A stretch of DNA of 64,000 bases from Sedimentisphaerales bacterium (lineage in GTDB: Bacteria; Planctomycetota; Phycisphaerae; Sedimentisphaerales; SM23-30). Each line of letters starts with the position of its first letter. Position 1 is the stretch's first letter. A program made the position numbers and the translations under genes. The stretch spans positions 244,891 through 308,890 of the forward strand of contig CAXXFK010000006.1 of NCBI GenBank assembly GCA_963663965.2. Direction: 5' to 3'. Of this stretch, positions 28,550 through 64,000 are shown piece after piece. The notes beneath the pieces were generated by a model. That model did not search any database and was not told the origin of the DNA. It saw only the letters and a list, made by a program, of their open reading frames with translations.

Positions 28550-28653
28550 CACATTTTTTATTAGTCTTTCATCTGGTAGAGTCTTTCAATGGAGGAGGGA
28601 GGGACAACTCCCTGCCCTGCCTCCCCGAGGGGAGGCAAAAATTTATCGGACGA

Positions 28654-32339: not shown

Positions 32340-32444
32340 GTCAAGCTCCCGTTTTTAGGTAACTTTAACAGACCAATTAGCCTTTCTTCAACATGGTCGA
32401 TTTTAAACTGCCCCCTCGTGGTCGATTTTAACCGCCCCTTGACA

Positions 32445-36748: not shown

Positions 36749-36755
36749 AGTTTAA

Positions 36756-36798
36756 TGGGCGATACTGGACTTGAACCAGTGACCCCCAGCTTGTCGAG
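36756..36798 (-). other. 3' half of tRNA-Val(GAC): att site of an integrative element
   Basis: Reverse complement is CTCGACAAGCTGGGGGTCACTGGTTCAAGTCCAGTATCGCCCA (anticodon loop, T-arm, acceptor 3' strand). The 5' half is absent and an integrase starts about 200 bp away. Confidence 0.85.
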
Positions 36799-37006
36799 AT
36801 GTGTATAATGGATTGCATAAATGCTGTAAAAATAATTAATAATAACATAAAGCGATATATTATAGTATGATATGAAAATTAAATAAATCGTGCATATTTG
36901 GCAAAAAGAGAATATAATGCTCTATATGTCATAAAGAGTGTCATAATCTGATTTTTAAGAAGATTCAAATTGGTCAAATTATGACACTTTGTTTGGAGGC
37001 AAAATT

Positions 37007-38612: not shown

Positions 38613-41600
38613 ATGGGTGCTTTAAGTCGAATCGTACGGAAAATTATAAAGGGTAAAGATCAATATAATCTTCAACTTGAACAATATGAATCTCGGGTAT
38701 TACTTAGCGCTTCTCCTCCTATGATTGGTCCACTTGATTTCGAAGGTGTCATGATGATCCCTCTTGAAAATACTTGTCTTTTAACAGACACCACCTCGAA
38801 GCTTAACGAATGTATTGAACCTACGGGGTATGTTCATGATGTTATTAACCCTAAAAATACAAGTGAATCAATTGTAGAGTTTGTGGCTTCTGATGTACAG
38901 ACGCAATCTGTTATGACGATCTTCTTCGATGACTTCTCTGATGGTAACATGGACGGATGGTATCGCGGAGATTGGGATTCCGGATCAGGTAGTGACTACT
39001 GGGGGTTAGTAAATGATGGGTTATATGCACCTCAGCCTTGGTGTGCCGCAGTTTCAGATGGTGGTGCTACTGTATGGTCTGACTACGACAACGATATGCA
39101 GGCATATATGTACCACTATATTGATCTGAGTGGGTATGATGGTTGTTACCTACAGTTCGACTACTATCTTGCATCAGAAGAAACATACGATGAACTGTTA
39201 GTACATGTCTATGCTGACGGGGGATGGTCATCTGCTCTGTGGTCCGACTCTGGATTTCACAATTGGGATGGGAGTTCCTCAACTACAGTAGATCTTAGCT
39301 CTTATGACGGAAAAGAAATCTATATTGAGTTTGAGTTTCGAAGTGATAGCTCTGTAGAAAGAACTGATTGGGAAGGTGACGGTGCTTGGGTCGATAATAT
39401 CAGAGTCAAAGGATCGGCAGTATCCTCCGATCTCACGAAGCAAACCGACCACATAAATAGCACCAGTGCCTTTCCTGGGGATACATTAGAAGTCGATCTA
39501 ACAATAGTGAACAGCGGATCTAATTCAGCTAACTCCTCCTATGTTTACTACTACTGGAAAAAGGGTTCAAAGGAATATTCTGACACTTATAAGGTTGGTC
39601 AGGATTATGTGAAAAGTCTTTCACCCCAAGACACCTCAGATGAGAGCTTTGAGTTTACGGTCCCCGCAGGATCTTTGGCGGGTACTTACTACTTATACTA
39701 TTGGATAGATGCTCGCGAGGAAATTAGTGAGAGTATCGAAACCAATAATAAATGGGCGTGGACTGTTACGGTCAACGAACCGACGAAAATATTATCTGTC
39801 GACTTTGAGCCGGATGATGGTTCCCAGGGTACTGTTGATGAGACAAAAACAGTGACAGTTTCCGTTGGTGCAGAGATTGCACAGCCAGGTGTTCTTCAGG
39901 TATGGATGTACGATGATGATTTTTCGACCCAGGATACGGAGTGGATATATATTGATGCTCCGCAGAGTACAGTACGTACGTTTGAACTGGCCTTGGTCGA
40001 GTCTGAGGTTGGTGCGCGTGACTATTCGACATATATTCAATTTCGGCCAAACGTAACGACCGGGCCGTTCATTTCAACGGAGCTATACGACTCGATCTGG
40101 ACTGGCAGTGATTATACCATCGACTGGAACGGAATTCCCGATCTCACGAGGCAAACGGACCACATAAATAGCACCAGTGCCTTTCCTGGGGATACATTAG
40201 AAGTTGATCTAACAATTGTGAACAGCGGATCTAATTCAGCTAACTCCTCCTATGTTTACTACTACTGGAAAAAGGGTTCAAAGGAATATTCTGACACTTA
40301 TAAGGTTGGTCAGGATTATGTGAAAAGTCTTTCACCCCAAGACACCTCAGATGAGAGCTTTGAGTTTACGGTCCCCGCAGGATCTTTGGCGGGTACTTAC
40401 TACTTATACTATTGGATAGATGCTCGCGAGGAAATTAGTGAGAGTATCGAAACCAATAATAAATGGGCGTGGACTGTTACGGTCAACGAACCGACGAAAA
40501 TATTATCTGTCGACTTTGAGCCGGATGATGGTTCCCAGGGTACTGTTGATGAGACAAAAACAGTGACAGTTTCCGTTGGTGCGGAGATTGCACAGCCAGG
40601 TGTTCTTCAGGTATGGATGTACGATGATGATTTTTCGACCCAGGATACGGAGTGGATATATATTGATGCTCCGCAGAGTACAGTACGTACGTTTGAACTG
40701 GCCCTGGTCGAGTCTGAGGTTGGTGCGCGTGACTATTCGACATATATTCAATTTCGGCCAAACGTAACGACCGGGCCGTTCATTTCAACGGAGCTATACG
40801 ACTCGATTTGGACTGGCAGTGATTATACCATCGACTGGAACGGAATTCCCGATCTCACGAGGCAAATGGACCACATAAATAGCACCAGTGCCTTTCCTGG
40901 GGATACATTAGAAGTTGATCTAACAATTGTGAACAACGGATCTATCTCAGCTAACTCCTCTTATGTCTACTACTACTGGAAAAAGGACTCAAAGGAATAT
41001 TCTGACACTTATAAGGTTGGTCAGGATTATGTTGAAAGTCTTTCACCCCAAGACACCTCAGATGAGAGCTTTGAGTTTACGGTCCCCGCAGGATCTTTGG
41101 CGGGTACTTACTACTTATACTATTGGATAGATGCTCGCGAGGAAATTAGTGAGAGTATCGAAACCAATAATAAATGGGCGTGGACTGTTACGGTCAACGA
41201 ACCGACGAAAATATTATCTGTCGACTTTGAGCCGGATGATGGTTCCCAGGGTACTGTTGATGAGACAAAAACAGTGACAGTTTCCGTTGGTGCAGAGATT
41301 GCACAGCCAGGTGTTCTTCAGGTATGGATGTACGATGATGATTTTTCGACCCAGGATACGGAGTGGATATATATTGATGCTCCGCAGAGTACAGTACGTA
41401 CGTTTGAACTGGCCTTGGTCGAGTCTGAGGTTGGTGCGCGTGACTATTCGACATATATTCAATTTCGGCCAAACGTAACGACCGGGCCGTTCATTTCAAC
41501 GGAGCTATACGACTCGATCTGGACTGGCAGTGATTATACTATAGACTGGGACGGAATTCCTGATCTTGAAGCGACATTGACTATCCTTAGTAACGGCTGC

Positions 41601-44600
41601 TATTGGGGTGACCAGGTTGGGTTCGAAGTAGGAACAGAAAACACAACGGGTGTACCAACGAATCATAATTGGAAAGTATATTTAGTGATGTCGCCAGACT
41701 CAAACGTGACGATTACAGATTATATACTAGATGAATGGCTGATTCCTATAGGTAGTGGCGAATGGGGAATGTCATTATTGGAGGAATTACCAGCTACTCC
41801 ACCGTCAGGATTTTCAAGCGATGGAATTGTGTATTTTGGTTTAATCGCTGATGTAGCGAACAACATAATCGAGCAAAACGAAATAAATAATATAGATATT
41901 GAAACGATACGAATAAGTAAATATAATAATCCTCCCACAATAGATATTTTAGTTGGGCCAGGTGATGGCGATACGATTAATTATGATGATGTAAAATATG
42001 AATGGTCTGGCTATGATTCTGATGGGTATATTAGCGGTTACGAAGTAAAAATGGATGACTCAGGCTGGTCGACTGCAAACAAAACTATGACATTTCCAAA
42101 TCTTTCCGAAGGAAAACATGAATTTTCTGTCAGGGCAATAGACAATGACAATCAATATTCTAACTGGTCACACAATACTTTTAATGTGGATTTAGATGAA
42201 AACCAAGAACCAGGAGACACAATTGCCTATTCATATGACTTGGGTACATTGAAATTGAATGACTCAAAAAATATTACAGAGATGGTTGGGAATGGTTTAC
42301 ATTTGAATAAAGACATAGATATATTCAAAATAAGTTTAGAGGATAATGCCAAAGTAACATTTGACATAGATACAACACCGCCGGTGTCTTCATTAGATTC
42401 ATATTTACGTTTATTCGATAGTTATGGTTCAGAAATTGCATTTAGTGATGATGAGGCATCACCGGGAGAGTCAAACACACTTGATTCATTTTTAGAACGT
42501 TATCTATCCGTTGGCACTTATTATATTGGAGTTTCGGGGTATCCCAATGTTCGTTACTTGCCCTCAAATAATAGCTCCGCAGTTTCTGGAAGCACAGGTA
42601 ATTATACACTGAGCGTTACAGTTTCTAGTCCTGAGGATCAGCCACAGGATATTCGACCTTTAGATGTTATTCAACTATCAGGTGACTTCGAAGAAACGAG
42701 TGATGGGCTACATACCGCTACTGGAACGATTGTCGTGAATGACTTTTTAACTGTTATTGGAACGATCACCTATGATGATGAACTGAATATCCATGGCGAT
42801 GGGGAAGTATGGGTACATAATATCCCTATTATTGGTGATGCCATGTTGATGGATGATGAATTTGATTTTCCCGCCGGCGAGGTTATAACCGATAAACTGA
42901 ACGGAGCACTATCAAGCCTGGCTGTAGCCGGATTGGATCTTAAGCTAGACCGATTCTTGTTAGTTGAAAATGGAGTCCGATTGGAAGGGGCTCTGAAATT
43001 ACCCGATTTAATGGGTGGTACTGAAATCAAATTTGCCAATCCGCATTTCATTGATATTACCACAGAAGGGTTATTTTATGACTTTGTTGTTACCCCCAAT
43101 GACCTAAGTTTTAAATTAAACAAGTTGGAGTTTATTTCCGAGGATGTTGAGTTGGCCGTATCTAATGCTGATGGCCAGGCGGAAGCAACCCTTTCAGGAT
43201 TGTTTACGGTCAACATTTTGGGTACCAATATTTCTGTAGATTTGGATAAGGAGCAGGGGCGCTATTTCCGTTTTTCTCAGAGTGGTGATTGGGATCTGGT
43301 AGGAACAATTATGGTTGATCGGGTGGATTTCTTGAAAAACAAGCTTTATGTTGAAGATCTTATTATTGATCTAGATACGACTGAAATGAATTTTCACGGA
43401 GAAGGATGGATTCATCTCCCCATTGGTAACGGTGTGAATGTTTTCGGAACACTTGAGATTGTACAAGGGTATTTGGATTCTGTCGGTTTGACCGTAAGTG
43501 AATTAGATGTACTAGTATGGTCACCGCCACCAATATATTTGGACACCATAGGTGGTTCTGTCCAAAATATGACTCCAGATGAAATCGATGGCGAACCAAC
43601 CTTGATCACTGTCAATGCGGGTTTTCAGCTAGGGCCGGATATTGGAGACTATAATTTAATCTATCTTGATCTTAACGGATGGGTTGACATGGCTGGCGGC
43701 ATGGGAGGTAGCGCTGGGGTTAAGTTAGGAAATCCTGACGATCCGTTTGCCGGCGGAAATGTGTCCGTGAGTTGGTTTCCCTATAAAGACCTGTTTACCT
43801 TGGATGGCAATATCTTTATTGGGGATAGTGAGGATCCCATCGTCGGTTTAGAGGGATCGCTAGCATCATCCGGTGATGTCATTAGCGGGCAACTTGAGGG
43901 AGGCATTTATACCAAGCATATTCCGGGTTGGGTCAAAGATATTTATAAAGGATGGAACATTATTAATCCATGGTCTCCGCACTTCGGAGATTTTGATTAT
44001 GAAATGCCCGATGAAATAACGGGTCAAGCATATTTCATTGTAAGCGATGATGGCAATGAAAAGAATGATTTTATCATGGTTGGTTCAAAAGATTTGCTAA
44101 CGGTTAAAATTATCTTAGATGGGGACTTTAATGTTTTTGATGACATCAAAGCAGTGAAATTCAAAGAACTGGAAAAACTTATTGATGATGATGTTGCCAA
44201 CGAGGAGAGGGCGACAGCATTATCGGGTCTGGACGATCCTGGGTCCGCTGTTATAGAATCTTATAATCTGCCGGTCAGTCTGGAGGGGGTGGTATTCCAG
44301 TTGGAATGGGAAAATAATAGTGCAGGATTTGAAATCTTCAAGCCAGACGGCACTCGGATTACCATTGACAATGTAGATGATTATTCCAATATAACGGTAG
44401 TAGAAAATAGCGAATCGCATTTAATTACCTTTGTTGTTTATTCGCCGACCGGAGGGGTATGGCAAACGGCAGTTCCCGATACAACCAATATTGGGAACTA
44501 CACGATCCGGGTTCAAAGTCGCACTAACGATCCGGTAATTTCTTTGTTAGAACCTCATAGTGATATATCGACGACCTCGGTGGATATTACCTGGGTGGAT

Positions 44601-47141
44601 GAAGATAACGATTCCGATGCGTTAATATCGCTATACTATGACGATGATCGCTATGGCGCCGACGGGATATTGATAGCTGCCGGCATACCTGAGGATGACG
44701 CTACTGATTATTATAATTGGGATCTAACGAATGTACCGGCCGGTGATTATTATGTCTATGCAGTCATTGAGGATGGCGTAAGTACACCCGGAATCAGTTA
44801 TGCGACCGGCCGGGTATCTGTGATCGATGCTAACGCTCCTGAAAAAGTTACAGGTCTAAATGCTCCAGAAGGAACTCATGATTCCATTCAATTGAGATGG
44901 CAGTCGTCTGGAGCGGAAGATTTAGATCATTACCTGGCTTATTATACCGCCAATGCGGCGGGTGAAAATTATCAACAACAAGTTGTGGCAGATAAGGCCG
45001 CTTCAGTTGTTATAACTGATTTGGTGCCAGGTGAAACTTATCGCATTGCCATAGCAGCTGTAGATACAGAAGGGAATATTGGAATATGTAGTGATCCGAT
45101 TGTTGTTGTGATTGGTGGTGTCACTTCCGTTGCTCCAGAGGCTGATCAGTGGTCGGTATTTGCAGATCCTGGCGTGCTTTATCAAGCTCAAATACCTGGC
45201 GCCCTAGGCGATAGTTATAGTTTAATTAATGGCCCAGATACGAGTATGCTAAATGAATCGGGACTTTTTGAATGGTTTGTACCCTCAGATGCTTTTGGTT
45301 GGCACTCTGTACTTGTTCATGTGACTCATTCAACAGGAAGCACCTCCGTTTATCGATATCATTTATTATCGGATAATCGTGTACCCGAATTTACTGATGT
45401 CATTGCTCAAGTTGAGGCCATAAGTCCCAATGCTGTTCAAATTATATCTCCAGATGGGATGGATAGTACTGGGGTAGTTCACTACCAACTTGAACGTGAT
45501 GGAGAGATTATACCAGAATGGCAGATTATGCCCGTATTCATAGATTTGGGTTTATATCCAAATAAGTATTATGACTATCGATTACGTCTTAAGGATTCAT
45601 CTCCAACCAGCGTGCCTTCGGACTGGTCAGATATTATAACAGTTTGTACATTGGCCGATATTCCTAACAGGCCTTCACTGATGACAATAAATCAGACTAC
45701 ATTAATATTGGAAGAATTACCACAGGATAGCAACCCTGAAGGCACTGAGTATGCGATTTATTGTACTACCACAGGGCAGTACTTGACTACAGATGGTGTT
45801 TTTAGCCAAGAACCGGTATGGATTTCGATTGATTCCTGGTCTGATATTCCTATTGGTGGATTATTACCTGACATGGAATACAAATTTGTTTCAATAGTAC
45901 GCAATCATGAAGGTTTCATAACAGAACCAAGTACGGTAATAAGTGTTCATACTGCTCGAGAAGATGATGCACCTATTGTCAGTACTTATGAAACAGACTC
46001 CTCTCATGGCACAATCTCATTGGAGTTTTCTGAGTCAATTATGATTTCAATAAAAGATATATCGGTATATGACAGTAATGGTACACCTGTTACTCTAGCC
46101 GGTGCCCAGCTATCTCATACACCAGCCAGTTTATTTGCTCAAATCTACTTTAATAATGTTTTAAATGAAGGATCTTATACTTTAGTCCTTAATGGAAACA
46201 ATGTTCAGGATTTGTCTGGCAATCTGTTAAATGGTGGGCAAGATGAGTTTATTGATTTTGAGATTGTTCCCGATACGGCTGCTCCTGAAATACTTTCCTG
46301 GCAATCCGCGAAAATGCACAACACTGGAGAAGCGCTACTGACAATTCCTGATGATGGCAGTTTTTCGGAGCCTCGATTAGTTAACGGTACCTCAGAAGGG
46401 GGAATCAGCACGTTATTAATTACTTTTGATGAAGCAATTGATACGGATAGTTTTCGATCGGATAGTATCGCTGTGGTTGGTAACGATTTGAATGGGAATA
46501 CCGTCGATTTATCTGAGATTCAAATAATGACAAATATGCGTAATGCTAATACCGTTGGTGAGGTTACTTTCAATCCTGCCCTGCCGGACTTCGCTCGTTA
46601 TCTGATTCGTTTGGAAGGAATAACTGATATGGCTGGCAATCCCTTGGAAAGTGACAATGACCGGATTATGACTTCTTTGCTAGGCGATGCGACTGGTGAT
46701 TTGCGTGTTAACAACACCGATGTGGGAGGTGTTAAGAGTTTGCGTGGTATCAATCCCATTGATCTAACTGAAAAATGGCAAGTACGCAGTGATGCCAATC
46801 TGGATGGCAGAATTAACAATACTGATGTAGGAGGTATTAAATCAATGCGAGGACGCGATGCCAGATTTATTTTTGATCCGGTAATACCTGAACCAACACT
46901 CTTGGATGATACGCTGAATGAAGATTCCTACTTTAATACTGCCGATACGGCAAAATCAAGCGTACTCTCAAATAGATTATTAGTTGCCAATTTGAGCTTA
47001 AAGAAACTAACATTGTTGTTCAATTCTATTAAGCCAGTACAAGCCAATAATCTTTTAATTCTCAGCAAGCCAGCTTTGAAGGAAGGATTATTAATGGAAA
47101 ATTATGATCCCATCGAAATATTTCTCAGAAATTATTTGTAA
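38613..47141 (+). CDS. 2842-aa extracellular multidomain protein: LEPR-XLL motif, jelly-roll/MAM-like domain, CARDB repeats, PPC-like, FN3, Ig-like and C-terminal dockerin-like domains
   Basis: LEQYESRVLLSA; G.YYL...ID....I.ES.E.NN (CARDB); LDSYLRLFD..G..IAFSDD (PPC-like); GDATGDLRVNNTDV / SDANLDGRINNTDV. Confidence 0.85.
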   Translation: MGALSRIVRKIIKGKDQYNLQLEQYESRVLLSASPPMIGPLDFEGVMMIPLENTCLLTDTTSKLNECIEPTGYVHDVINPKNTSESIVEFVASDVQTQSVMTIFFDDFSDGNMDGWYRGDWDSGSGSDYWGLVNDGLYAPQPWCAAVSDGGATVWSDYDNDMQAYMYHYIDLSGYDGCYLQFDYYLASEETYDELLVHVYADGGWSSALWSDSGFHNWDGSSSTTVDLSSYDGKEIYIEFEFRSDSSVERTDWEGDGAWVDNIRVKGSAVSSDLTKQTDHINSTSAFPGDTLEVDLTIVNSGSNSANSSYVYYYWKKGSKEYSDTYKVGQDYVKSLSPQDTSDESFEFTVPAGSLAGTYYLYYWIDAREEISESIETNNKWAWTVTVNEPTKILSVDFEPDDGSQGTVDETKTVTVSVGAEIAQPGVLQVWMYDDDFSTQDTEWIYIDAPQSTVRTFELALVESEVGARDYSTYIQFRPNVTTGPFISTELYDSIWTGSDYTIDWNGIPDLTRQTDHINSTSAFPGDTLEVDLTIVNSGSNSANSSYVYYYWKKGSKEYSDTYKVGQDYVKSLSPQDTSDESFEFTVPAGSLAGTYYLYYWIDAREEISESIETNNKWAWTVTVNEPTKILSVDFEPDDGSQGTVDETKTVTVSVGAEIAQPGVLQVWMYDDDFSTQDTEWIYIDAPQSTVRTFELALVESEVGARDYSTYIQFRPNVTTGPFISTELYDSIWTGSDYTIDWNGIPDLTRQMDHINSTSAFPGDTLEVDLTIVNNGSISANSSYVYYYWKKDSKEYSDTYKVGQDYVESLSPQDTSDESFEFTVPAGSLAGTYYLYYWIDAREEISESIETNNKWAWTVTVNEPTKILSVDFEPDDGSQGTVDETKTVTVSVGAEIAQPGVLQVWMYDDDFSTQDTEWIYIDAPQSTVRTFELALVESEVGARDYSTYIQFRPNVTTGPFISTELYDSIWTGSDYTIDWDGIPDLEATLTILSNGCYWGDQVGFEVGTENTTGVPTNHNWKVYLVMSPDSNVTITDYILDEWLIPIGSGEWGMSLLEELPATPPSGFSSDGIVYFGLIADVANNIIEQNEINNIDIETIRISKYNNPPTIDILVGPGDGDTINYDDVKYEWSGYDSDGYISGYEVKMDDSGWSTANKTMTFPNLSEGKHEFSVRAIDNDNQYSNWSHNTFNVDLDENQEPGDTIAYSYDLGTLKLNDSKNITEMVGNGLHLNKDIDIFKISLEDNAKVTFDIDTTPPVSSLDSYLRLFDSYGSEIAFSDDEASPGESNTLDSFLERYLSVGTYYIGVSGYPNVRYLPSNNSSAVSGSTGNYTLSVTVSSPEDQPQDIRPLDVIQLSGDFEETSDGLHTATGTIVVNDFLTVIGTITYDDELNIHGDGEVWVHNIPIIGDAMLMDDEFDFPAGEVITDKLNGALSSLAVAGLDLKLDRFLLVENGVRLEGALKLPDLMGGTEIKFANPHFIDITTEGLFYDFVVTPNDLSFKLNKLEFISEDVELAVSNADGQAEATLSGLFTVNILGTNISVDLDKEQGRYFRFSQSGDWDLVGTIMVDRVDFLKNKLYVEDLIIDLDTTEMNFHGEGWIHLPIGNGVNVFGTLEIVQGYLDSVGLTVSELDVLVWSPPPIYLDTIGGSVQNMTPDEIDGEPTLITVNAGFQLGPDIGDYNLIYLDLNGWVDMAGGMGGSAGVKLGNPDDPFAGGNVSVSWFPYKDLFTLDGNIFIGDSEDPIVGLEGSLASSGDVISGQLEGGIYTKHIPGWVKDIYKGWNIINPWSPHFGDFDYEMPDEITGQAYFIVSDDGNEKNDFIMVGSKDLLTVKIILDGDFNVFDDIKAVKFKELEKLIDDDVANEERATALSGLDDPGSAVIESYNLPVSLEGVVFQLEWENNSAGFEIFKPDGTRITIDNVDDYSNITVVENSESHLITFVVYSPTGGVWQTAVPDTTNIGNYTIRVQSRTNDPVISLLEPHSDISTTSVDITWVDEDNDSDALISLYYDDDRYGADGILIAAGIPEDDATDYYNWDLTNVPAGDYYVYAVIEDGVSTPGISYATGRVSVIDANAPEKVTGLNAPEGTHDSIQLRWQSSGAEDLDHYLAYYTANAAGENYQQQVVADKAASVVITDLVPGETYRIAIAAVDTEGNIGICSDPIVVVIGGVTSVAPEADQWSVFADPGVLYQAQIPGALGDSYSLINGPDTSMLNESGLFEWFVPSDAFGWHSVLVHVTHSTGSTSVYRYHLLSDNRVPEFTDVIAQVEAISPNAVQIISPDGMDSTGVVHYQLERDGEIIPEWQIMPVFIDLGLYPNKYYDYRLRLKDSSPTSVPSDWSDIITVCTLADIPNRPSLMTINQTTLILEELPQDSNPEGTEYAIYCTTTGQYLTTDGVFSQEPVWISIDSWSDIPIGGLLPDMEYKFVSIVRNHEGFITEPSTVISVHTAREDDAPIVSTYETDSSHGTISLEFSESIMISIKDISVYDSNGTPVTLAGAQLSHTPASLFAQIYFNNVLNEGSYTLVLNGNNVQDLSGNLLNGGQDEFIDFEIVPDTAAPEILSWQSAKMHNTGEALLTIPDDGSFSEPRLVNGTSEGGISTLLITFDEAIDTDSFRSDSIAVVGNDLNGNTVDLSEIQIMTNMRNANTVGEVTFNPALPDFARYLIRLEGITDMAGNPLESDNDRIMTSLLGDATGDLRVNNTDVGGVKSLRGINPIDLTEKWQVRSDANLDGRINNTDVGGIKSMRGRDARFIFDPVIPEPTLLDDTLNEDSYFNTADTAKSSVLSNRLLVANLSLKKLTLLFNSIKPVQANNLLILSKPALKEGLLMENYDPIEIFLRNYL
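39427..41560 (+). repeat. Three near-identical in-frame 711-bp tandem repeats (237 aa each)
   Basis: Units start at 39427, 40138 and 40849. The shadow ORFs recur at a 711-bp period. Confidence 0.97.
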
Positions 47142-47194
47142 TGACTAATTCATGAAATTGAAAACAGTATTTACATTGTTAAGGAGAAAAAAAT

Positions 47195-47821
47195 ATGAAA
47201 TCGACATTAAAAGTACTAGCATTGTTGTTGATAATTCAAACCATATTAACCGACATAAGTTCAGGCGCCTATGTTATAACGCCAATGACTGGTGGTAAAA
47301 ATCAGGTACAGGTTCTACCGGGCGAAGAGTTTAAATTGGATATTGTTTTGTCCTCTGATAACATGGATAAGCACGACACATCAATTTTCAGAGTGAAGTT
47401 TTCTGTGCCAGGTTTAATATGTCAGTCCTATCAATGGAGTACTCCATATCTAAACCAGACCGATGATGATGACAGTACACCACTCTGGGACAGCTTACCA
47501 TTGGCTTTGCAGGCAGATACCCTACAGGGATCGGGTTATCCAGAAAATATCGTTGATATCGAGTTATCCAATACGGCTGATGATGATTTTGACAGTGGTT
47601 TACTAGTCAGCATTATCCTGCAAGTACCGGAAACATGGAATCTTGATGATGAATTAATATTCGTGGATGTGGTGCCGGATTCTTTTACGAATGGCTTCAA
47701 TGAGATCACCACAAGTTCTGGTCCATGCTTGACTATTACTATTCCGGAGCCAGTATCGTTCGTATTGATTGGAATGGGTTGGCTCAGTATCTACAATAAT
47801 CGTAAAACACGTATTTTTTAA
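47195..47821 (+). CDS. PEP-CTERM protein with a single cohesin-like domain
   Basis: Signal peptide, beta-rich domain (VQVLPGEEFKLDIVL...FDSGLLVSIILQVP), C-terminal IPEPVSFVLIGMGWLSIYNNRKTR. Confidence 0.78.
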   Translation: MKSTLKVLALLLIIQTILTDISSGAYVITPMTGGKNQVQVLPGEEFKLDIVLSSDNMDKHDTSIFRVKFSVPGLICQSYQWSTPYLNQTDDDDSTPLWDSLPLALQADTLQGSGYPENIVDIELSNTADDDFDSGLLVSIILQVPETWNLDDELIFVDVVPDSFTNGFNEITTSSGPCLTITIPEPVSFVLIGMGWLSIYNNRKTRIF

Positions 47822-47889
47822 TCAACATAAAATCAAGATCAACAGTTCGCTTGATGACCATCACATATTTATTAACCTGGAGATCTGAA

Positions 47890-50800: not shown

Positions 50801-51702
50801 TAACAGGTAACCGGGCTCGGATGGGTGGCGCCATTTTCTGCTATGCCAGTGAACTTGATCTTCAGAATACGATTCTGGCGGGTAACTATGCCGATCAGGG
50901 TGGTGGCCTTTTTGTGTCAACTGATAGTAATATTACAATAGATTTCTGTACCTGCGTTTTGAATCGTGGTCAGGAAGGAGGCGGGATTTGCTGTGATCGG
51001 TTCTACCCGGCTTATCCTGATCCCAGTCAGGTAAAGGTAAGCAATTCAATATTTTGGGATGATGGGACTGAAATTGTCAATAATAACGCCTCATTCCTGA
51101 TCATTGAATATAGCGATATTCAGGGTGGATATCCAGGTATGGGTAACATGCAACTGAATCCACAGTTTGCCGATTCCGGTCTTTGGCAGGACGTTAATAA
51201 CACACCGGATGATCTATCCGATGATAGCTGGCTAGATGGTGATTACCATCTGAAGTCCACGGTCGGTCGCTGGGATCCTATGGAAAAGGATTGGGTCATT
51301 AACGATGAATTAAGTCCCTGCATTGACGCCGGTAATCCCAAACTTGCTCCTGGTAATGAAATCCAACCTAACGGCGGATTAGTAAACATAGGAGCTAATG
51401 GTGGGACTGACCAGGCAAGTCTATCCACAGGCATATTACCCGACGACACAGTTGACTTTAATAAAGATGGTCTAATTAATCTGGGAGATTTTATCTTCCT
51501 GTCAGAACAATGGCTGAATCAGGCCACATGTTGTATAATCAACAATTGGTGTTCTGGGCTAGATCTAAATCGTTCAAAAGATATCGATGCTTTAGATCTT
51601 TCTCTGATGGCTGAAGAATGGTTACGTAGTAAATTTGTTTTTATTCCTGGAAGCACCTTTCAGATGGGTGATGTACCAGGTGATGGAATTTCCAATAAGT
51701 AA
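47890..51702 (+). CDS. Secreted protein: cohesin-like domain, two right-handed beta-helix modules, dockerin-like domain and FGE-sulfatase stub
   Basis: N-terminal domain is paralogous to the PEP-CTERM protein. GGAI/N repeats; DYHLKS..GRWDP..SPCIDAG twice; DFNKDGLINLGDF..LSEQWL / DLNRSKDIDALDL..MAEEWL. Confidence 0.85.
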   Translation: MWPLKLKQYFAIIIHLLLVSIVLGDYTIFVQNNESDALTVNPGDSFNLDIRLETDNSDIHDSAIFRLVFSKPGLEYLSYYWSSPYPNETDDDDSTPIISDLPIVIKADSLAGIGYPSNTVDIELSNSADTDFNSGLLVKLTLKVPESWQSIYEMMAVSIIPDTLADGFRVINSVSGSPMTLKICPKNLSPFFYVDDDSLNDPVPGDPDQSDPFEDGTMEHPYDSVQKAINAISSGKSIVLLPGYYTGKGNRDIDLQGKSLIIRSQDPNDPEAVLETIIDCHGTETEPHRAFVLEGNPDTTLDGLTLKNGFASSDGGSIYCADSRLTIQNCYISNNNAYARGGAIHLDSNSQLIISKSQLSANCAYRGGAISNYDSELKLFDCLLEGNSTAINDDIGTSNNGGAIINIGSSDEDQAIAELVNCAFIRNSSIQFGGVMTSYRASIDIDHCTFLGNQSLYGGVMDNSRCQVSLVNSFLTGNSAQMGGAIFCYASELDINHTVLTGNQADQGGGLFVSTDSSVTMDFCTCGYNRAREGAGIYFDLFYPAYPDPSQLKISNSILWDEGTEIVNNNVSSLTIDYSDVKGEYSGMGNLQLDPQFADSGLWQDVNNTPDDLSDDSWLDGDYHLKSTVGRWDPMEKDWVIDDELSPCIDAGNPKLSPGNEIQPNGGLVNIGAYGGTSQASQSLQEILYVDNDAPDDPGPDDPNRFDPLENGTLAHPFDTIQKAINYNDGEQCIIILPGIYTGIGNRDIDLQGKSLIIRSQEPNDPEVVLETIIDCQGTETEPHRAFVIEGNPDTILNGLTLKNGFSSNDGGSIRCADSYLTIQNCYILNNNAYARGGAIHLDFNSQLTISKSQLSANRAYRGGAISNYDSELKLFDCLFEGNNTAINEALGTSNNGGAIISIGPSDEDRAITQLVNCVFNNNSSIQFGGVMTSYRASIDIDYCTFQGNQGLYGGVMDTSRCQVSLVNSFLTGNRARMGGAIFCYASELDLQNTILAGNYADQGGGLFVSTDSNITIDFCTCVLNRGQEGGGICCDRFYPAYPDPSQVKVSNSIFWDDGTEIVNNNASFLIIEYSDIQGGYPGMGNMQLNPQFADSGLWQDVNNTPDDLSDDSWLDGDYHLKSTVGRWDPMEKDWVINDELSPCIDAGNPKLAPGNEIQPNGGLVNIGANGGTDQASLSTGILPDDTVDFNKDGLINLGDFIFLSEQWLNQATCCIINNWCSGLDLNRSKDIDALDLSLMAEEWLRSKFVFIPGSTFQMGDVPGDGISNK
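48466..51420 (+). repeat. Internal duplication of about 1.49 kb (two beta-helix modules)
   Basis: YVDDD/YVDND start at 48466 and 49954. Long near-identical DNA stretches. Confidence 0.9.
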
Positions 51703-51989
51703 CCGGTTCATTAGGTAACGCTTAGTGATTTTTACATGAGTCTAAATATCTAAAAAGCAATAAAATAAGTGTTAGTCACCCGTATTTACCACAGTTGAAT
51801 TAGTTCTCTTAAAAGATTACAATCAACTATATGCTAATTACTCAGTCGTTAAGGAATCTATTTTAAGCAATGTATTTAGGCATTAGTATGCCGCCTATTC
51901 ATTTTTAATACTACGTGTATTTTTCTCTTTTATAATTGTGAACAAAATGACAAGGATTCTTTAAAATTATTTTTTGCGGAGAATCAATA

Positions 51990-54900
51990 ATGAAAAACAT
52001 TCTATTAGTTTCATTTATTATTGGAGAATTGTTTTTTTATTCTTGGGCTCAAGCAGATACAATTTTTATTAATGGATATATCACTCAAAATACAAATTTT
52101 GCAGACCCAGATAATATTTATGTTTTGAATAACGATTTATATATTGCCTCAGGAGCGACTTTGACCCTGGCCTCAGGGGTGGAGTTACAGACGAATCTCC
52201 ATTCGATTTATATTGACGGCCGCCTGGAGAGCATGGGTGGCATCCTGCACCATATTGGTCGACGCGACTATGGTTACGGCTATATTTGCGTTCGTGCCTC
52301 AGGGCAACTGGCAATTACTGGCGGTACGGTACGGGGGGCGGGTACTATTGAGGTTCAGAATGCGGCCCAAGCCGAGTTTTCCGAAGTGGCCTTCGAGTAT
52401 TATGATGGTGGAGCTTCATACCGAGCTGGCAGCCCCAACATTATCTTTACTTCCGATTCAATGGGAATGGTGTCTGAGTGTGCCGGCAGTTGGCAGTTAA
52501 CGGTCAGCAGTTCGCAGGTGACGGTTGCCGACTGTACCATTCCTTATCTGCAACTGAATGACGGAGCCCCAACGGTCACCGGCAACACTTTCAGCGATGC
52601 TTATCCGATTCGGCTGGCCAACCCGGCTTTGGATACCAGCGGAATAACCGGTAACACCTATACCCATACTTCGCCCTGGATTTATCTGCAAGGGGCGACG
52701 ATGGCTGCTTCTAGAATACTGACCGGAATCGATGGCCTTTACTATCAGATGCAAGGGAATCTGACGATTGCCTCGGGAGCGACCCTGACGCTGGCCACGG
52801 GGGTGGAATTACAGACGAATTCCTATTCGCTTTCTGTCGACGGTCATCTGGAGAGTATGGGTGGCATCCTGCACCATATCATGCGACGCGACTATAATGG
52901 CAGTTATATTTGCGTTCGTGCCTCAGGGCAACTGGCAATTACTGGCGGCACGGTACGGGGAGCAGGTACTATTGAGGTTCAGAATGCGGCCCAAGCCGAG
53001 TTTTCCGAAGTGGCCTTCGAGTATTATGATGGTGGAGCTTCATACCGAGCTGGCAGCCCCAACATTATCTTTACTTCCGATTCAATGGGAATGGTGTCTG
53101 AGTGTGCCGGCAGTTGGCAGTTAACGGTCAGCAGTTCGCAGGTGACGGTTGCCGACTGTACCATTCCTTATCTGCAACTGAATGACGGAGCCCCAACGGT
53201 CACCGGCAACACTTTCAGCGATGCTTATCCGATTCGGCTGGCCAACCCGGCTTTGGATACCAGTAACATAACTGGTAACTTTTACCTTGATCCGGCTCCA
53301 ATTATTAATATTAAAGGGGTAATAAGCCAATCAGTGATATTGTCTGGTATCGATGGATTAACACACTATATTTTAAATGGCCACTTAACAATCCCACAAA
53401 ATGTAAAACTGGTGATTTATCCTGGTGTAACAATATCAACCAATGGCTGGCATCTCTATCTAGACGGAATTGCAAATCTATATGGAACTAATTTTATAAT
53501 TCATCGAAATACCCGAGTTTATGTGAGAAATGGTGCGACGATCAATGTATCGGGAGGAACCGCATCCGGTCCAGGTGTGATTGAGGTTCAGGATGGTGGA
53601 TCAGCGTCTTTTGCCACAGTAAAATTTTACAATCGTGAAGGTGACTATTATTGGGGTGGTAAGCCATCACTAGTCTATCAATCTGGAGCAACCGGTTCGT
53701 TACATTGGTGTCAGTTGAGTAATTTGAGTATCCATAGCGATGCACAGGTTGCTGTTACAAACAATGATATATCCAATGGTTATGTAACTTTGTCTGGAAG
53801 TTCTTCGGCAATTATTGCTGTGGGGCAAAACTGGTGGGGGGACAACGAATCCTGATTTAATAGCCAAGCAGATTACGGATCAGTCTGATAATGGTTCTCT
53901 ACCGGCGCTCGATTATACCCCCTTACTCAATGCTCCTCCTTCAACCTTTAATATTATTGCCCAGTGGCCCAGTGACAGGACTGCCGACCATGTTGACTAT
54001 TTCGAGATAGCATTTAATGACGATGTTGACCTGGCCTCCTTTGCCTTTGACAAAGTGGCCCTGACGGGACCATCTGGCCGTTGTTCTGTCAATCATATCG
54101 AGTCACGGGGATATTCAGTTTATAGAATCTATTTGTCAGAACTGTTAGCAGAGGGAACATATAGTTTTGAAATCGCTTCGTCTATTAAAGATACTGACGG
54201 CCGCGCTCTTAATCAGGATGGGGATAGCAACTTTGGCGAGGCGGTTGATGATATTTATCGAGGCCGTTTTGTCATAGATCATACCGGACCGCGAATCGTC
54301 ACATATAGCCCCCAAGGAGATGTCGCCGGAACGGCAAGCTATCTGGATTTATACTTTTCGGAAAAAATGCGTTTGTCTTCCATGCAAAGCAAGTATATCA
54401 ATGTGCTGGGGCCTCAAGGGACGGTGTCCGTAACGGGTATCCAGGATATTGGGAATAATGTCTATCGAGTGTATTTTGAGCCAATGACCACTTATGGCCA
54501 ATATCAAGTTGTCACCAAGGTGCCGGTTTTTGAGGATGTAGCAGGAAATTATCTGGATCAGAACCGTAATCAAGTTCAGGCAGAAGAACCCAACGATATT
54601 TTTACCGCAACATTCAACCTGGTGGAAATCGACTTGCAGATTTCGAATATTGTTGTCGAACCAGAGGAGTTATGGGTAGATGATTTGGTTCAGGTATCCT
54701 GGGATGGTGCCAATCAGAGCGGCGCTCCTTTGATCGGAAGTTGGTCCGATGCGGTATATTTGTCAACCGACGCTGCCTGGGATATCGATGATCCATTGCT
54801 CGTTATGACATCTCATACAGGCGGTCTGGGCCTTGCTGAATCTTATCATGAAGAGGTGGAGGTCTCCATACCCGGATTATTACCGGGATCGTATTATGTG

Positions 54901-57900
54901 ATTGTCCGTGCGGATTTGTTTAATGAAGAAAAAGAGGGGGATGAGGAAGGTAACAATGCCATTGCTTGGGGGCCACTTGCATTAAATGTGCATGAATTAC
55001 AGGCCGATATGGCGCCATCGGCAAATAGTTTGACAGATGATCGTGATGATTATTTTATGGTCGAAGCTCAAGCTGATAGTAATTTACTGATTCTGCTGGA
55101 CCACATAACCGAAGGGTCATCTGCAGATCTCTACGCCAGTTATGAATCCATACCTTCCCCGCAGCAGTATGATTATGCTTCCAAAGATAATATTGGCACT
55201 CAAGTGGGAATTCCCGCCGCGCAATCGGGCCATTATTATGTCCTGGTCCATTCCGTTAGCGCTCAATCACCCGATTATTATGAAATATCCGCATGGCAGC
55301 CTGATATAGTCGTTACCAATATATACCCAACCCATCATAGTGTCAGTAGTCCATGTGTCATGACCATTAACGGTGGGGGATTTGATGAGACCGTCCAAAT
55401 TCAATTTAATGATCCAGAGAACAATGTTCAGCAGCCTGACAGGATTGAAGTTTTGTCATCTGATTCTCTGCTGGCCTACTTGGAGACACCCCTGTGGTCC
55501 CAGAAAAGTTATGATTTGATAGTATCCAAAGCAGTTGCAACAAAATCATCCGGTGATGGTACTATTTATTCTGATAAACCGGTGGCTTATGAATATGTAC
55601 AGAAAGATATTTTTGAAGTCACAGATGGAGTACCTTATCTGGAAACACATGTTGTTATGCCGGCTCAAATGGGTTATCACTGGCCACAAACGGTTTATAT
55701 TGAATATGAAAATACCGGTCAGGCATCCATGCCCTCGCCTTTGTTGAAATTAGATATGACGGATAAGGCCCTGTTAACTCTCGATAAGACCGTTCAGGAA
55801 TCCTGGTGGACAATGGGCAACTGGTGGTATGGAGGGCCGCCTAAGGGGGTTTCGGATTCAGTTCAGTTTTTAACAAAAGGCTCTGGATCAACCCCCTATA
55901 TATTACAACCGGGAGACAAAGGAAGAGTCCCCGTCTATTTTATGGGATGTCAGCAACCGTGGAATTTTTCTGACAGGGTGATCGAAGCTCATCTGAAGGT
56001 ATGCTCAGAATCCAATACTGATTCAGTAGACTGGTCCCAACATAAAGAGGCGATGAGGCCGCAATGGTGGATCGGCAGTGATGCCTGGGATGCTGTCTGG
56101 CAAAATTATATGACCCTGGCAGGTGATACTTGGGGAGAGTATATTCGAATTGTCAATCAAATGAGATTTCCACAAGCTTTAGCTCATATTGCCAGTGGAC
56201 TTCGAATATGGTATACCGGGGAACCGGGACAGGCCACTAACATCGCGGCAGATGTAATTGATGTGACCACTCCGCTGGCCTTGGCATTTCGACAGGCAGA
56301 TGGATTAAATCCTATCTACAACCTGGCTCGGGCAACCGATATGACTGTCCCTGCTCCAGGAATATCTTTATCTTTTTCGCGTATCTATCAGCAACCAATC
56401 AGCCGCCGTTACCAGGTTGGTTCGTTAGGCCGTGGCTGGCGACACAACTGGCAAATGCATTTGGCAACGAATAATGAGGGCGATATTGCTATTTATGATA
56501 TAACTGGAACACCAAGAATCTTTGATAAAGAAGGCAGTATTTTCAAGGCATCCAAAGGTGATCATGGTATTTTGACATATAGCAACGGTATCTATTATGT
56601 CACGGAATTGAATGGAACAATTACAACTTATCTAAGTAATGGCCTGTTCAGCACTATCGAGGACACCAATGGAAACAGGGTCACGGCGACATATAATGGA
56701 ACTGATTTGGCCCGATTGACGCACACAAATGGGCGGCAGATAATATTTACCAACAATGGTGGTCGTATTACCTCTATAACCGATACCCGTGATACTGATC
56801 CTGATGATGATTATACCGTACAATTTATCTATGATACTTCTGGGCAATATTTAATCACTGTTATTGAACCTGGCGGCCAAATAACCAATTATTCGTATGA
56901 GATGAGTGGGACTATCCAGCAGCGGCATGCCCTAACCGGAATTGAGTATCCAGATTTGACTCACCAATATTTTAGTTATTCCGAAAATGGCTGGCTCACA
57001 AGTGTCTCTAAAGATAATCACGCTGAGCCTTTATTATTTACTTATGATAATAAAGGCAGTGTCGCAGTAACAGATGCTCAGGGCCGAAAAACCAACTATA
57101 CCTTTGATTGGACGGGGCAGATTTCTCAAGTCAGGGATGGCAACGGTAATAAATTGAATCTGATCTATGATAACGAGGGGAAAATAGTTGGAGTAGTAGG
57201 GCCAGAGGGCCAGCAATTTGCCTATGCTTATGATAGTAAAGATAATATTACCAGTATGGAAGATGGCTTGAAGAAGACCATAAAAGTAGCTTATGAGGGC
57301 AACCATAATCAACTGAGCAGAATTATAGATCCTAGAAACAATGATATGAAATATCAATATGATAGTCGTGGTAATCTGACTAAAATAATCTACGCGGATA
57401 ATTCATCAGAAGATTATACCTATGACTCCAATGGTAATGTATTATCCTGGACTAATCGTCGCGGCCAGACGGTCTCCTATACTTATAATTCCTCGGGGCA
57501 GGTTACCAGTAAAGACTACGATACAACTCCCGAGCTGGACTTTATCTACACCTATGATACAGCGGGAAATCTGACTTCGGCATCCGACTCTCATGGCATG
57601 ACAATCATGTCCTATGATCCGGTGACCAACTGGCTCATCCGCATTGAATATCCAGGCGGAAAGTCGCTTGACTTCCAGTATGATTCGGTAGGCCGCCGCA
57701 CTCGAAGGACGGACCAGGATGGATATTATGTTGATTATCGATACACACCTCTGGGCAAACTGGAACAGATAAGTGATCCCGATGGGATTACGATTGTCGA
57801 TTATGACTATGATGCAACCGGACAGCTAGTCAAGAAAACCCTTGGCAATAACACCTATACGACTTACAGTTATGATTCGGCTGGAAATCTGATCAGTTTG

Positions 57901-60177
57901 ATCAATTATAAACCCGATGGTTCGATAATCTCCAGTTTTGCCTACTCCTATAATGCTTCTGGTCTGCGAACTTCAGAAACCACACTGGCGGGAACCCGCA
58001 CTTATGAATACGATTCCAATGGGCAACTCGTCAAGGTGACCTATCTAGATGGTAACATTACCGAGTATTTATATGATTCGGTTGGCAATCGTATCAGGGT
58101 TGTAGAAGATGGTATTTCCACCAATTATGTCACGAACAACTTGAATCAATATGAACAAGTTGGCGATACGGTTTATACTTACGATACAGATGGGAATATG
58201 ACCACAAAAACAGAAGATGGAGTTACGACCACTTATGTTTATAATGCTGAAAACCGCCTGATTGAGGTGTCAACGCCTACTGAAATCTGGATTTATACTT
58301 ATGATGCTCTTGGCAATCGAATTGCTACGGATAATAATGGAGTAGTTACGAATTTCCTGATTGATCCGGCAGGATATGGGAATTTAATTGCTGAATACGA
58401 TTCTTCAGGTGATATGGTCGCGAAATATGAGCATGGTTTTGGATTGCTGTCCAAGACCGAGCAATCTGGTGATTCATATTGGTATCACTTCAATGCGATT
58501 GGTTCAACCAGCGAGATAACTACAGAGGATGCCGCCATTTCAAATACTTACAATTATTCTCCTTTTGGGCTAATTCTATCCGAAACTGAAATAGTTTCTA
58601 ATCCATTCAAGTATGTAGGAGAAAGCGGCATAGAACAAACAAATGCTGGACTCTACTACATGAGAAAAAGATTATATGATTCATTGATTGGTAGGTTTAT
58701 ATCCATGGATCCAGTCAAAATAACTGCTGGGGACATAAATTATTATAGATATGTTAGAAACAATCCTATTAAAATGATTGACCCATTAGGTCTAATTGAA
58801 AATGATGATGAAATTGACCCAAGGACAAGAAGAATACTAGAAAGGTTAAATAATCTAACATTAGCTGATTTCCAAAAAGCATGTTGGGAATCATTAGGAG
58901 ATGCTACCGTATTGACTATTTTATTGACAAAAGGGACTCTTGACTTAGTTAGCCCTATTAGGTGGTGGAAAATTGGATCAATGGCTGTATCATTTTTCCT
59001 GGCTGAAGACATTGAAGATGTTGTTGTATCATTAATACCCTTTAATGAATTTTATTACTATTTAAGTTATCTAGGTTTATTTAATATTAATGTGCCCGAC
59101 CCTAACGGATACGATGGAGGCGATGGCAGTGGCAGTATTAGTCATATGGTTGATCCAAACCGTAAACTTGGTCCATCGGGATATGGGAATTCCAGTTATA
59201 TTCCGCGAAATCAGTTAATGGCTTATACGATTGAATTTGAAAACATGGATGATGCGACTGCTCCTGCTCATATTATTCGAGTCATTGATACATTAGATGC
59301 CGGTCTTGACCTGACTACCTTTGAATTGGTCGAACTGGTATTTGCCAATCAGACCATTTCAATTCCGCCAGGATTAAAGGAATACAAAATCAACTATGTT
59401 TTACCAGTTGATAATGAATATGTATCGGCCAGTGAGATTGTTGTCCAGATTAATATCCGATTGGATACTGCTGCCAGGGAACTCACTCTGCAAATGGTAG
59501 GAGTTGATCCTGAGACTGGCTGGCTTCCAGACAACATTCTTCTAGGAGTGCTTTATCCCAATGATGAATCCCATCGGGGTGATGGGCATTTGAGCTATAA
59601 TGTCAAGCTTAAGAACAACCTTTCCAGCGGAACTGTTATTACCAATATGGCTTCCATCTATTTCGATTGGAATGATCCGATTGACACTCCACTGGTTCTC
59701 CATACACTTGATAATGATTTACCGGAAAGTGTGATTGATGGGGTGACTCGGATCAATAAGACTGACATTCAAGTGGATTGGTCTGGATCTGATAACTCTT
59801 CTGGAATCGCAGATTATGATGTTTATGTTTCGATTGATGATAATCCCTTCGAGTTATGGCTTCAGCACGATCCCAACTCAACCGCCGTCTATCATGGTCA
59901 AATTGGCCAGAAATATAGTTTCTATAGCATTGCCTATGACAATGTTGGGAACCGGGAAGATGCTCCTGGGGAACCAGATATCATTGCAGGATTGTCTTTT
60001 TATTCCGATTTAAACTTAGATGGCGTTGTTAATGTGTTGGATTTAAGCTGCCTTATTGAACAGTGGCTCAATCCACCTGCTGTTCCATCGGCGGACATGG
60101 CTCCCGATGATGGCGATGGCTTTGTGGGATTTGATGACTTTGCCATCCTGGCTCGTGAATGGCTGGAGGGACATTAA
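51990..60177 (+). CDS. Giant secreted RHS/YD-repeat protein (beta-helix, Ig-like, CARDB, RHS core, DPN..YTIEFEN domain, dockerin-like); apparent +1 frameshift at ~53836-53841
   Basis: Signal peptide. ORFs 51990..53855 and 53815..60177 join as NWWGTTNPDLI if one G is removed from the G run. GRGWRHNW, YD repeats, core GLYYMRKRLYD..IGRFISMDP..YVRNNPI..IDPLGL; DLNLDGVVNVLDL / DDGDGFVGFDDFAILAREWL. Confidence 0.88.
52143..53350 (+). repeat. Tandem duplication of about 620 bp in the RHS protein N-terminus
   Basis: IASGATLTLA..ELQTN..YICVRASGQLAITGG..PALDTS occurs twice with near-identical DNA. Confidence 0.9.
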
Positions 60178-63700: not shown

Positions 63701-64000
63701 ATGGCTATCTGCAATCTGTGAACCTGTCTTTTGACGGTGGCAACCTGGAGTTAAATGGAACCGGTGATATCGGATTGGATGATCTGGTAATTCCATCGGG
63801 TGTGCTGACCCTGAACCGTCCCCGGATCTTCCAGAACCTAACCATTGGCTCCAGCGGTCAGGTGACCTGTGCGACAGAAACACCCTTGGAATTAACGGTA
63901 TCAGGAGATTTGCTGATCGAGACGGGTGGTTCATTGCACGCCAACGGCAGGGGTTACGCGGCTTATACGGGCCCGGGAGCGCCGGGTTTATGGCACTAGC
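60742..64000 (+). CDS. Secreted LamG + Ig-like + Gly-rich repeat protein, probably continuing beyond the window
   Basis: Signal peptide, SLRFDGVND..WHHVALV..GLIDEIRIWNRALS, NQDNDSNFGE, GGGGRIAV..GGAGTVY. The stop at 63997 falls early in a second repeat unit and disappears if one T is removed from gggtttatggcactagc. Confidence 0.82.

Follow-up and report, generated by a model that had tools for sequence, protein, structure and literature searches.

A predicted cohesin-fold surface anchor and its candidate dockerin partner on a likely mobile island of a Sedimentisphaerales bacterium

Here, we analysed a 64,000-nucleotide stretch of the genome of a Sedimentisphaerales bacterium (assembly GCA_963663965.2, contig CAXXFK010000006.1, positions 244,891 to 308,890; hereafter, the window). 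Between positions 38,613 and 60,177, it encodes a giant protein that ends in an immunoglobulin (Ig)-like module and a dockerin of a kind termed type A (open reading frame, ORF, A), a small protein with a domain that we call X (ORF B), a second X-bearing protein (ORF C), and a protein of the RHS family (ORFs D and E). Our comparisons point to a probable tether in the style of the ScaE/X-dockerin systems, in which ORF B would be a single-cohesin surface anchor that catches the Ig-dockerin end of ORF A. An initial annotation had proposed a cellulosome-like assembly without glycosidases, built from a PEP-CTERM cohesin anchor, a cohesin-dockerin adaptor into a host network, and two dockerin types, for the display of adhesin- or toxin-like cargo.

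ORF A and the predicted cohesin of ORF B

38613..47141, plus strand: ORF A, a giant of 2842 amino acids (aa) with a LEPRxLL-like leader, three CARDB-containing repeats and fn3/Ig modules
39426..41558, plus strand: three tandem 237-aa repeats inside ORF A, 97.5-99% mutual identity
46272..46679, plus strand: Ig-like (Big_5/CopC-like) module, conserved immediately 5' of the type-A dockerin (model and alignments)
46683..46868, plus strand: type-A dockerin, two symmetric calcium-loop/helix repeats, aa 2691-2752 of ORF A
47195..47821, plus strand: ORF B, 208 aa, with signal peptide, domain X (47267-47743) and degenerate PEP-CTERM tail (47744-47818)

Domain X spans 160 aa and is common to ORF B and the N-terminus of ORF C, which are paralogous over it, as initially annotated (49% identity over 172 aa, E 5e-57); it is present once in each and nowhere else in the host genome. 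Its AlphaFold model, built with 99 sequences, reached a predicted local distance difference test (pLDDT) score of 97 and predicts a cohesin fold, a jelly-roll beta-sandwich. Comparison with 48,161 chains by VIA returned cohesins as the 17 best matches (Z 13.8-10.9, 7-16% identity, root-mean-square deviation 2.3-2.9 over 121-133 aa), cohesin-bearing chains also took ranks 1-23 among the Foldseek matches listed, and the neighbours of X in the Atlas were PEP-CTERM/cohesin clusters. The proposal that the shared domain folds as a cohesin is thus borne out by the model. The Pfam cohesin family PF00963 matched 4 of 148 X homologues, one of them above its cut-off.

The remainder of ORF B resembles a putative PEP-CTERM substrate. 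Its N-terminus is hydrophobic and reads as a signal peptide by hydropathy rather than by a dedicated predictor (12-residue Kyte-Doolittle mean 2.86). The criteria described for such substrates are a PEP motif, a transmembrane helix and a basic cluster (PMC1569441, as far as its accessible text goes); in ORF B, the PEP and the basic end are present and the hydrophobic stretch is short. The annotated order of signal peptide, domain and PEP tail stands, with a tail that is degenerate. The closest full-length homologue, P0002 (47% identical), carries PF07589, and the host genome holds two exosortase genes (PF09721, above cut-off) and about 50 PEP-tailed ORFs by regular expression.

As proposed, ORF A ends in a duplicated type-A dockerin, whose two repeats are near-identical and which is a single copy in the host genome. 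A profile of eight type-A sequences matched Clostridium thermocellum type I dockerins in the PDB with E 2e-9 to 8e-8, while PF00404 gave E 0.002 on the dockerin of ORF A, below the standard of its cut-off. The model shows three helices, and the calcium-loop residues are present, so that calcium binding is predicted. Since the Foldseek and VIA results for the combined Ig-dockerin model were swamped by the Ig part, the dockerin assignment stands on the sequence profile. The type-A signature (R7, N/A10, T11, G14) is distinct from that of the second dockerin kind of this genome, type B, in which positions 20-21 are W-L (96% and 76% for the first loop found) and position 10 is mostly L. The symmetry of the ORF A dockerin suggests dual binding. 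The Ig-like module before it, missed in the initial annotation, was modelled with pLDDT 97 and matched SbsC (Z 9.0) and CopC (Z 8.3) in VIA; by analogy, it would be the counterpart of the X-module in X-dockerin dyads.

In ORF A, a Sec signal was not seen, and neither a catalytic domain nor an anchor was detected in the domain scans. Its leader, which we take to be LEPRxLL-like, matched nothing in Pfam or NCBIfam. The 237-aa repeats appear from their identity to be a recent duplication, and the protein is likely an adhesin or surface-coat protein. Ribosome-binding-site-like sequences precede both ORF A and ORF B, and both frames are long and intact.

In the mechanism that we propose, ORF B would be exported by Sec, processed by exosortase and fixed in the envelope through its PEP-CTERM-like tail, with X displayed. 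ORF A, with its LEPRxLL-like leader, would leave the cell, apparently without a Sec signal, and X would catch its Ig-dockerin end in a calcium-dependent manner and in either orientation.

Linkage of X with the type-A dockerin and exchange of its tails

The dedicated pairing of X with type A, as the initial annotation had it, gained support from gene linkage, from a natural fusion and, weakly, from complex prediction. In 15 of 19 other distinct X loci, a type-A gene is found no more than two genes from X, on either side; these loci came from the class search together with 17 further loci (11 new once near-identical sets and one duplicate had been merged). The remainder comprises one unlinked locus, whose genome has two type-A giants elsewhere, and three uninformative ones on short or cut contigs. 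The linkage appears from both directions in the class searches, which, like the phylum search below, scored just 7-9 candidates per genome, so that misses are possible. With the C-terminus of ORF A as the sole query, 7 of 300 class genomes matched and the four best had X directly downstream; among the other three, one match lay at a contig edge and two were weak, with another dockerin and flanks without X. With X as the query, 8 of 400 class genomes matched, seven of them with a type-A gene directly upstream. Moreover, P0150 is a natural single-chain fusion in the order Ig, type-A dockerin, X, dockerin.

The giants next to X, upstream or downstream, have unrelated bodies and a common Ig-dockerin end, and they occur in Phycisphaerae and in one Verrucomicrobiota genome. 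The bodies of 43 other giants are varied; domain scans of 14 showed peptidases (M36, C25, C11, S8), CotH, FG-GAP and CARDB, with GH113 in one of the 14. An Ig-dockerin profile matched 19 of 400 genomes, nine of them strongly; seven of these nine were already in the profile, and the other two had a different dockerin and lacked X, as did three tested genomes of a weaker, multi-copy group. In one Phycisphaerae family, the related Ig-dockerin dyad is a multi-copy tail in 5/5 genomes (L074, L075 and L076 in G221, G148 and G071). This multi-copy family has another dockerin, X was found neither by the class search nor in the two of its genomes that were tested individually, and a further hidden cohesin may exist there. 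A Fisher test of the genome co-occurrence of X and type A gave p 9e-13, a value that is overstated by kinship and partly circular profiles and on which we do not rely.

A motif resembling NTDVGG at recognition positions 10-15 is present in at least one repeat in 18 of 21 type-A rows (repeat 1 only in 13, repeat 2 only in 4, both in 1, neither in 3) and in 0 of 257 host type-B matches; its retention is partly circular, because the type-A rows were found by likeness to ORF A. Its retention in one or the other repeat agrees with the reversed and dual cohesin-dockerin binding modes described in the accessible text of PMC5301203 and PMC7456326. The same Ig module also precedes dockerins with other motifs, often symmetric, in P0152, P0155, P0157, P0158, P0160, P0164-P0166, P0168, P0169, P0174, P0180, P0185 and P0187, which suggests further specificity classes, as judged from sequence.

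Complex prediction of X with the Ig-dockerin and two calcium ions scored 0.55 (runs 0.80, 0.55 and 0.55), with 0.00 for the best of three controls; contacts agreed at 98% or more, and the partner pLDDT was at least 92. In our benchmark, 116 of 157 solved pairs and 2 of 215 mismatched pairs attained the mark. The result adds a little to a pairing that was already likely from linkage.

A HMMER library search with a three-sequence profile found 288 X representatives at 50% clustering. Among the 150 homologues listed, two of which are the window's own ORFs B and C, X carries exchangeable tails, which were classed by regular expression and then corrected by hand: PEP-CTERM-like in 99, a kind that we take to be verrucomicrobial-type in 29, dockerin in 9, dockerin plus PEP in 5, cysteine/transmembrane in 2, other in 2 and partial in 4. 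One X locus belongs to a Verrucomicrobiota genome. In the 15 linked loci, the X tail is PEP-like in 8, dockerin in 5, cysteine/transmembrane in 1 and verrucomicrobial-type in 1. On a FastTree tree of 144 domain rows (partial matches excluded), the X domains of ORFs B and C are sisters with support 80, and the dockerin-only tails are scattered, with 7 changes for 8 rows. In relatives, the same socket would be fitted with the host's C-terminal tail, and different giants would plug in.

The family is patchy, since X was found in 0 of 60 relatives (single-protein search) and in 0 of 400 genomes of a phylum-wide sample. A word-index homology search gave one other relative near ORF B in length and no longer forms, so that the HMMER library search was needed, and a profile scan of the genome contigs with the three-sequence alignment gave no match. 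One X subfamily has a cysteine-rich insert of ~45 aa in the cohesin fold and is always dockerin-tailed (L031:12577-13185, L032:9248-9859, L044:10031-10642). Another cluster (L030:4810-12455 and L057) combines two X proteins, a second type of cohesin-like module, host-type dockerins and a type-A protein, and is the nearest approach to a small scaffold network among the loci seen.

ORF C, the type-B dockerins and competing explanations

47851..51702, plus strand: ORF C, 1270 aa, likely start 47890, with signal peptide, X, beta-helix blocks, type-B dockerin and broken end
47959-48438, plus strand: second X domain, in ORF C
48466-51441, plus strand: two 80%-identical PMP/DUF1565 beta-helix-like blocks in ORF C, about 990 aa
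51445-51627, plus strand: type-B dockerin of ORF C, aa 1199-1259 (own hidden Markov model, HMM)
51631-51699, plus strand: broken start of an FGE-sulfatase-like domain in ORF C, interrupted by stops
51990..53855, plus strand: ORF D, apparent 5' portion of an RHS gene, with signal peptide and repeat region
53815..60177, plus strand: ORF E, Ig/CARDB-like part, RHS/YD shell, variable segment of ~110 aa, DUF7619, fn3 and type-B dockerin
60001-60165, plus strand: type-B dockerin of ORF E, aa 2063-2117

ORF C joins one cohesin-fold domain and one dockerin of a different type in a single chain. Its annotated type-B dockerin is in place, and the original end of the protein lay beyond it, in a broken stretch that is presumably FGE-sulfatase-like, judged by its motif. 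A read contig from this sample agrees with the stops. The order dockerin-then-FGE recurs in five host proteins, and ORF C is therefore probably a mosaic that combines a duplicated X with a gene of host type. Its beta-helix passenger occurs in no other X homologue among those listed.

On the dockerins of ORFs C and E, PF00404 gave E 4e-4, just under its cut-off, and our own HMM, grown from these two, gave E 1e-14 and 1e-12. The HMM found 264 domains in 257 host ORFs, a count that may include a few other subtypes, with 195 lying no more than 60 aa from the C-terminus. A cohesin receptor for these 257 proteins was not found in the genome, where PF00963 had 0 matches, by searches that are insensitive to divergent cohesins; the host type-B network of the initial annotation, and with it the adaptor step, therefore stays hypothetical. 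The only other cohesin-like gene found in the host genome encodes a 194-aa PEP-CTERM protein and follows the gene of a Big_5/CARDB/TSP_C giant of 2930 aa, which has one type-B dockerin and two of a third type (L061:668-10066, G000:C28:135167-144565; third-position GC content, GC3, of the pair very low at 0.31 and 0.34). A profile match to X is absent, so the two are separate families.

The RHS protein does carry the annotated type-B dockerin; as a gene, it is split. ORF E lacks a start region of its own and overlaps ORF D at a run of six G (53836-53841), and the signal peptide is on ORF D, so that D and E appear to be a single gene with a frameshift. None of the read contigs (one sample, depth 2-3) spans the run, and at such a homopolymer the break may be an assembly error. 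The RHS core of ORF E matched TIGR03696 above cut-off, with DPxG at aa 1656, and between DPxG and DUF7619 lies an unannotated, moderately hydrophobic segment of ~110 aa (58780-59150). A reading of ORF E as an RHS polymorphic toxin was not supported: its C-terminus is DUF7619-fn3-dockerin, the next ORF of at least 100 aa is a LamG giant, and no immunity-like gene was seen behind it. For the toxin cargo that had been suggested, no toxin-immunity layout was seen, and no link between the RHS protein and X was found. The RHS protein carries the tag that is general in this host and probably stands outside the X system.

How ORF C is to be understood separates two further proposals from the simple tether. 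Compatible with that tether is a two-tier arrangement, in which X binds type A and ORF C, as a type-switching adaptor, uses its type-B dockerin to attach ORF A to a host scaffold, beside the RHS protein. The recurrence of X with a dockerin of another type, in several cases as minimal X-dockerin proteins, the unclustered changes of such tails on the X tree, and the host type of the ORF C dockerin all speak for this arrangement, which we nevertheless consider doubtful: the receptor for it was not found, the lone other cohesin-like gene found is likewise low in GC3 and follows a giant that has a distinct dockerin pair of its own, and ORF C proved to be a large, passenger-bearing mosaic with a decayed end rather than a ScaC-like adaptor. 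The three-gene order was not conserved either, as an X-PEP gene together with an X-dockerin gene was seen in none of the 15 linked loci, within the DNA that was retrieved; ORFs B and C form the only locus seen with PEP-tailed and dockerin-tailed X in tandem. In the tether that we favour, ORF C would have arisen when X was duplicated locally and joined to a gene of host type, with beta-helix and type-B dockerin, and would offer a second docking site for ORF A. More speculatively, the abundant type-B 'dockerin' could be a surface-sorting tag interchangeable with PEP-CTERM, and X with type A a mobile, host-independent plug-and-socket cassette of bacteria of the PVC group, whose socket is re-fitted with the tag of each host; we hold this as a tentative idea.

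The tether has several points against it. ORF B has no Pfam cohesin match (nor has ORF C), its tail matched neither the Pfam nor the NCBIfam PEP-CTERM models, and an X profile found nothing under E 0.15 among PDB sequences. In G207, X is present and no type-A gene was detected, and the linked genomes are related (seven come from two families). The three type-A rows without the motif all come from loci where X is linked, and among 42 giant dockerins scored (with P0150 in the set), 20 show other, often symmetric motifs. The complex score is weak, as at 0.60 or less there are just 18 of the 157 solved pairs plus both passing mismatches, and the predictor may have drawn on solved cohesin-dockerin structures that it had memorised. 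Mirror-tree analysis of 16 paired loci gave r 0.30 for dockerin and X (p 0.014) and the same r for the Ig module and X, so that co-inheritance alone explains the signal, and we do not take it as co-evolution. If X were instead an adhesion or ligand-binding domain of cohesin fold that binds no dockerin, co-inherited on a mobile cassette whose dockerins act as stand-alone calcium-binding or sorting modules, the weak score and the missing partner-specific covariation would fit; pilin and adhesin domains also match the X fold (Z 10.8 and lower, about 10), and dockerins here can persist without a cohesin, given the 257 type-B proteins for which none was detected. We regard this as unlikely in view of the unrelated giants that share an Ig-dockerin end next to X in Phycisphaerae and a Verrucomicrobiota genome, the P0150 fusion, the retention of the motif in either repeat, and the genome in which X and type A co-occur unlinked. 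Distinctly improbable, in our judgement, is a decaying island whose system has lost its function in this host, whatever its role in relatives. The broken end of ORF C, the D/E frameshift, the degenerate PEP tail and leader, and other split genes of the window (a sigma-54 activator and HsdR) could be read in this way, but ORFs A and B and the X/beta-helix/dockerin part of ORF C are long intact frames, ribosome-binding-site-like sequences precede ORFs A and B, ORF A has recent internal duplications, and the D/E break falls at the unbridged homopolymer.

Island setting, known systems and significance

36754..36801, minus strand: copy of the 3' half of tRNA-Val(GAC), likely attachment site, 47/48 identical to the gene on contig C17
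36989..38236, plus strand: tyrosine integrase (PF00589, E 2e-21)

These two features agree with the annotated island location. The region has a GC content of about 0.42, whereas that of the whole genome is 0.486; ORFs A, B, C and E fall in about the lowest 5% for GC3. From these sequence marks, the locus is likely an integrative island that targets tRNA-Val and whose far end lies past the contig; ORF A and X would form a self-contained cassette on it. Scanning the locus for promoters and terminators gave results at chance level. The same contig holds the tRNA-Val 3' half once more (C6:100557-100608), and the 446-aa ORF behind this copy possibly encodes an integrase. On C17 (27713-40000), pieces of type I restriction-modification genes and insertion sequence elements come after the intact tRNA-Val(GAC).

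Elsewhere in the window, positions 714-25354 resemble a defence island, with a sigma-54 activator that has a weak CARF match and is divided between two ORFs, genes for type I restriction-modification, among them a split HsdR, Fic, AAA_15/DUF3696, and, in a low-GC stretch, an 1811-aa DEAD-box helicase with an MZB domain. Positions 26887-35288, all of higher GC, hold a reverse transcriptase, presumably group II intron-like, transposases of the IS256, IS21 and DDE_3 types, and a second integrase. ORF F (60742-64000) has a signal peptide, LamG, Ig-like and glycine-rich repeats and runs off the contig end. In agreement with the initial annotation, no carbohydrate-active enzyme (CAZyme) domains were found in ORFs A-F by domain scan.

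We reject a cellulosome, as there are no dockerin-bearing glycoside hydrolases in ORFs A-F and no multi-cohesin scaffoldin in the host genome, where X is single in two ORFs and PF00963 had no match. The closest likeness is to ScaE of Ruminococcus flavefaciens and the X-dockerin dyads of CttA and ScaB (PMC5301203), and to the XMod-Doc:Coh complex of R. champanellensis (PMC7456326): in the accessible parts of these sources, as here by architecture and linkage, a single cohesin with a C-terminal sorting signal is paired with a large protein that ends in an Ig-like module and a dockerin, whose symmetry suggests dual binding. In contrast to those systems, sorting here would use PEP-CTERM and exosortase in a diderm rather than LPXTG and sortase, X has just 7-16% identity to solved cohesins, the dockerin is type I-like rather than part of type III modules, and the pair, whose binding is predicted, lies on a likely mobile island with neither scaffoldin nor CAZyme set. 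The system would work like the ScaE/X-dockerin pairs without being a member of that group, and would be a variant of the known non-cellulosomal cohesin-dockerin systems.

Cohesin-dockerin modules have already been placed in Phycisphaerae (PMC6461901, PMC11557425; available text). The 'planctosome' proposed for Nemodlikiaceae (PMC6461901), which in that text is hypothetical only, shares with our locus the class, a non-cellulolytic assembly, and a proposed anchor and adaptor, and thus loosely anticipates the tether by analogy. Its anchor is a 2210-aa lamin-tail/P-domain protein and its cargo consists of peptidases, whereas the anchor here would be a 208-aa PEP-tailed cohesin that Pfam misses; PEP-CTERM is unmentioned in the main text of that paper. 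Lamin-tail/P-domain or peptidase domains were found in none of ORFs A-F and occur in some related giants. With the monovalent adaptor scaffoldins, such as R. flavefaciens ScaC (PMC11557425, in the part available), ORF C and its minimal relatives share one cohesin plus a dockerin of another type, and differ for ORF C in its ~990 aa beta-helix-like passenger, its broken tail and a dockerin for which no cohesin was found. Cohesin or dockerin modules outside cellulose degradation are also reported for Limihaloglobus sulfuriphilus (PMC11557425), Ca. Stygibacter (PMC8542988), and Clostridium perfringens and Archaeoglobus (PDB 2vo8, 2xdh). These reports include diderm bacteria and, in their accessible text, rest on cohesins detectable by Pfam or InterPro, unlike X; no PEP-CTERM-anchored cohesin or dedicated dockerin subtype is described there. 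Full-text literature joining cohesin or dockerin with PEP-CTERM was not found, in a coverage that mostly leaves out subscription journals.

Dockerin-like tails are very common on the secreted proteins of planctomycetes, and recognisable cohesins are rare. The locus supplies a cohesin family that is invisible to Pfam, with a genetically defined partner dockerin, and small enough for in vitro work. Through the exchange of PEP-CTERM for type-B tails, what the type-B dockerin does becomes directly testable; if the tag-swap idea is true, the tandem of ORFs B and C captures such a swap and gives a handle on the type-B receptor. If X does bind type A, the pair would reveal how anchorless giant proteins stay attached to a bacterium with two membranes, would give one PEP-CTERM family a concrete role, and may yield an orthogonal cohesin-dockerin pair for engineering.

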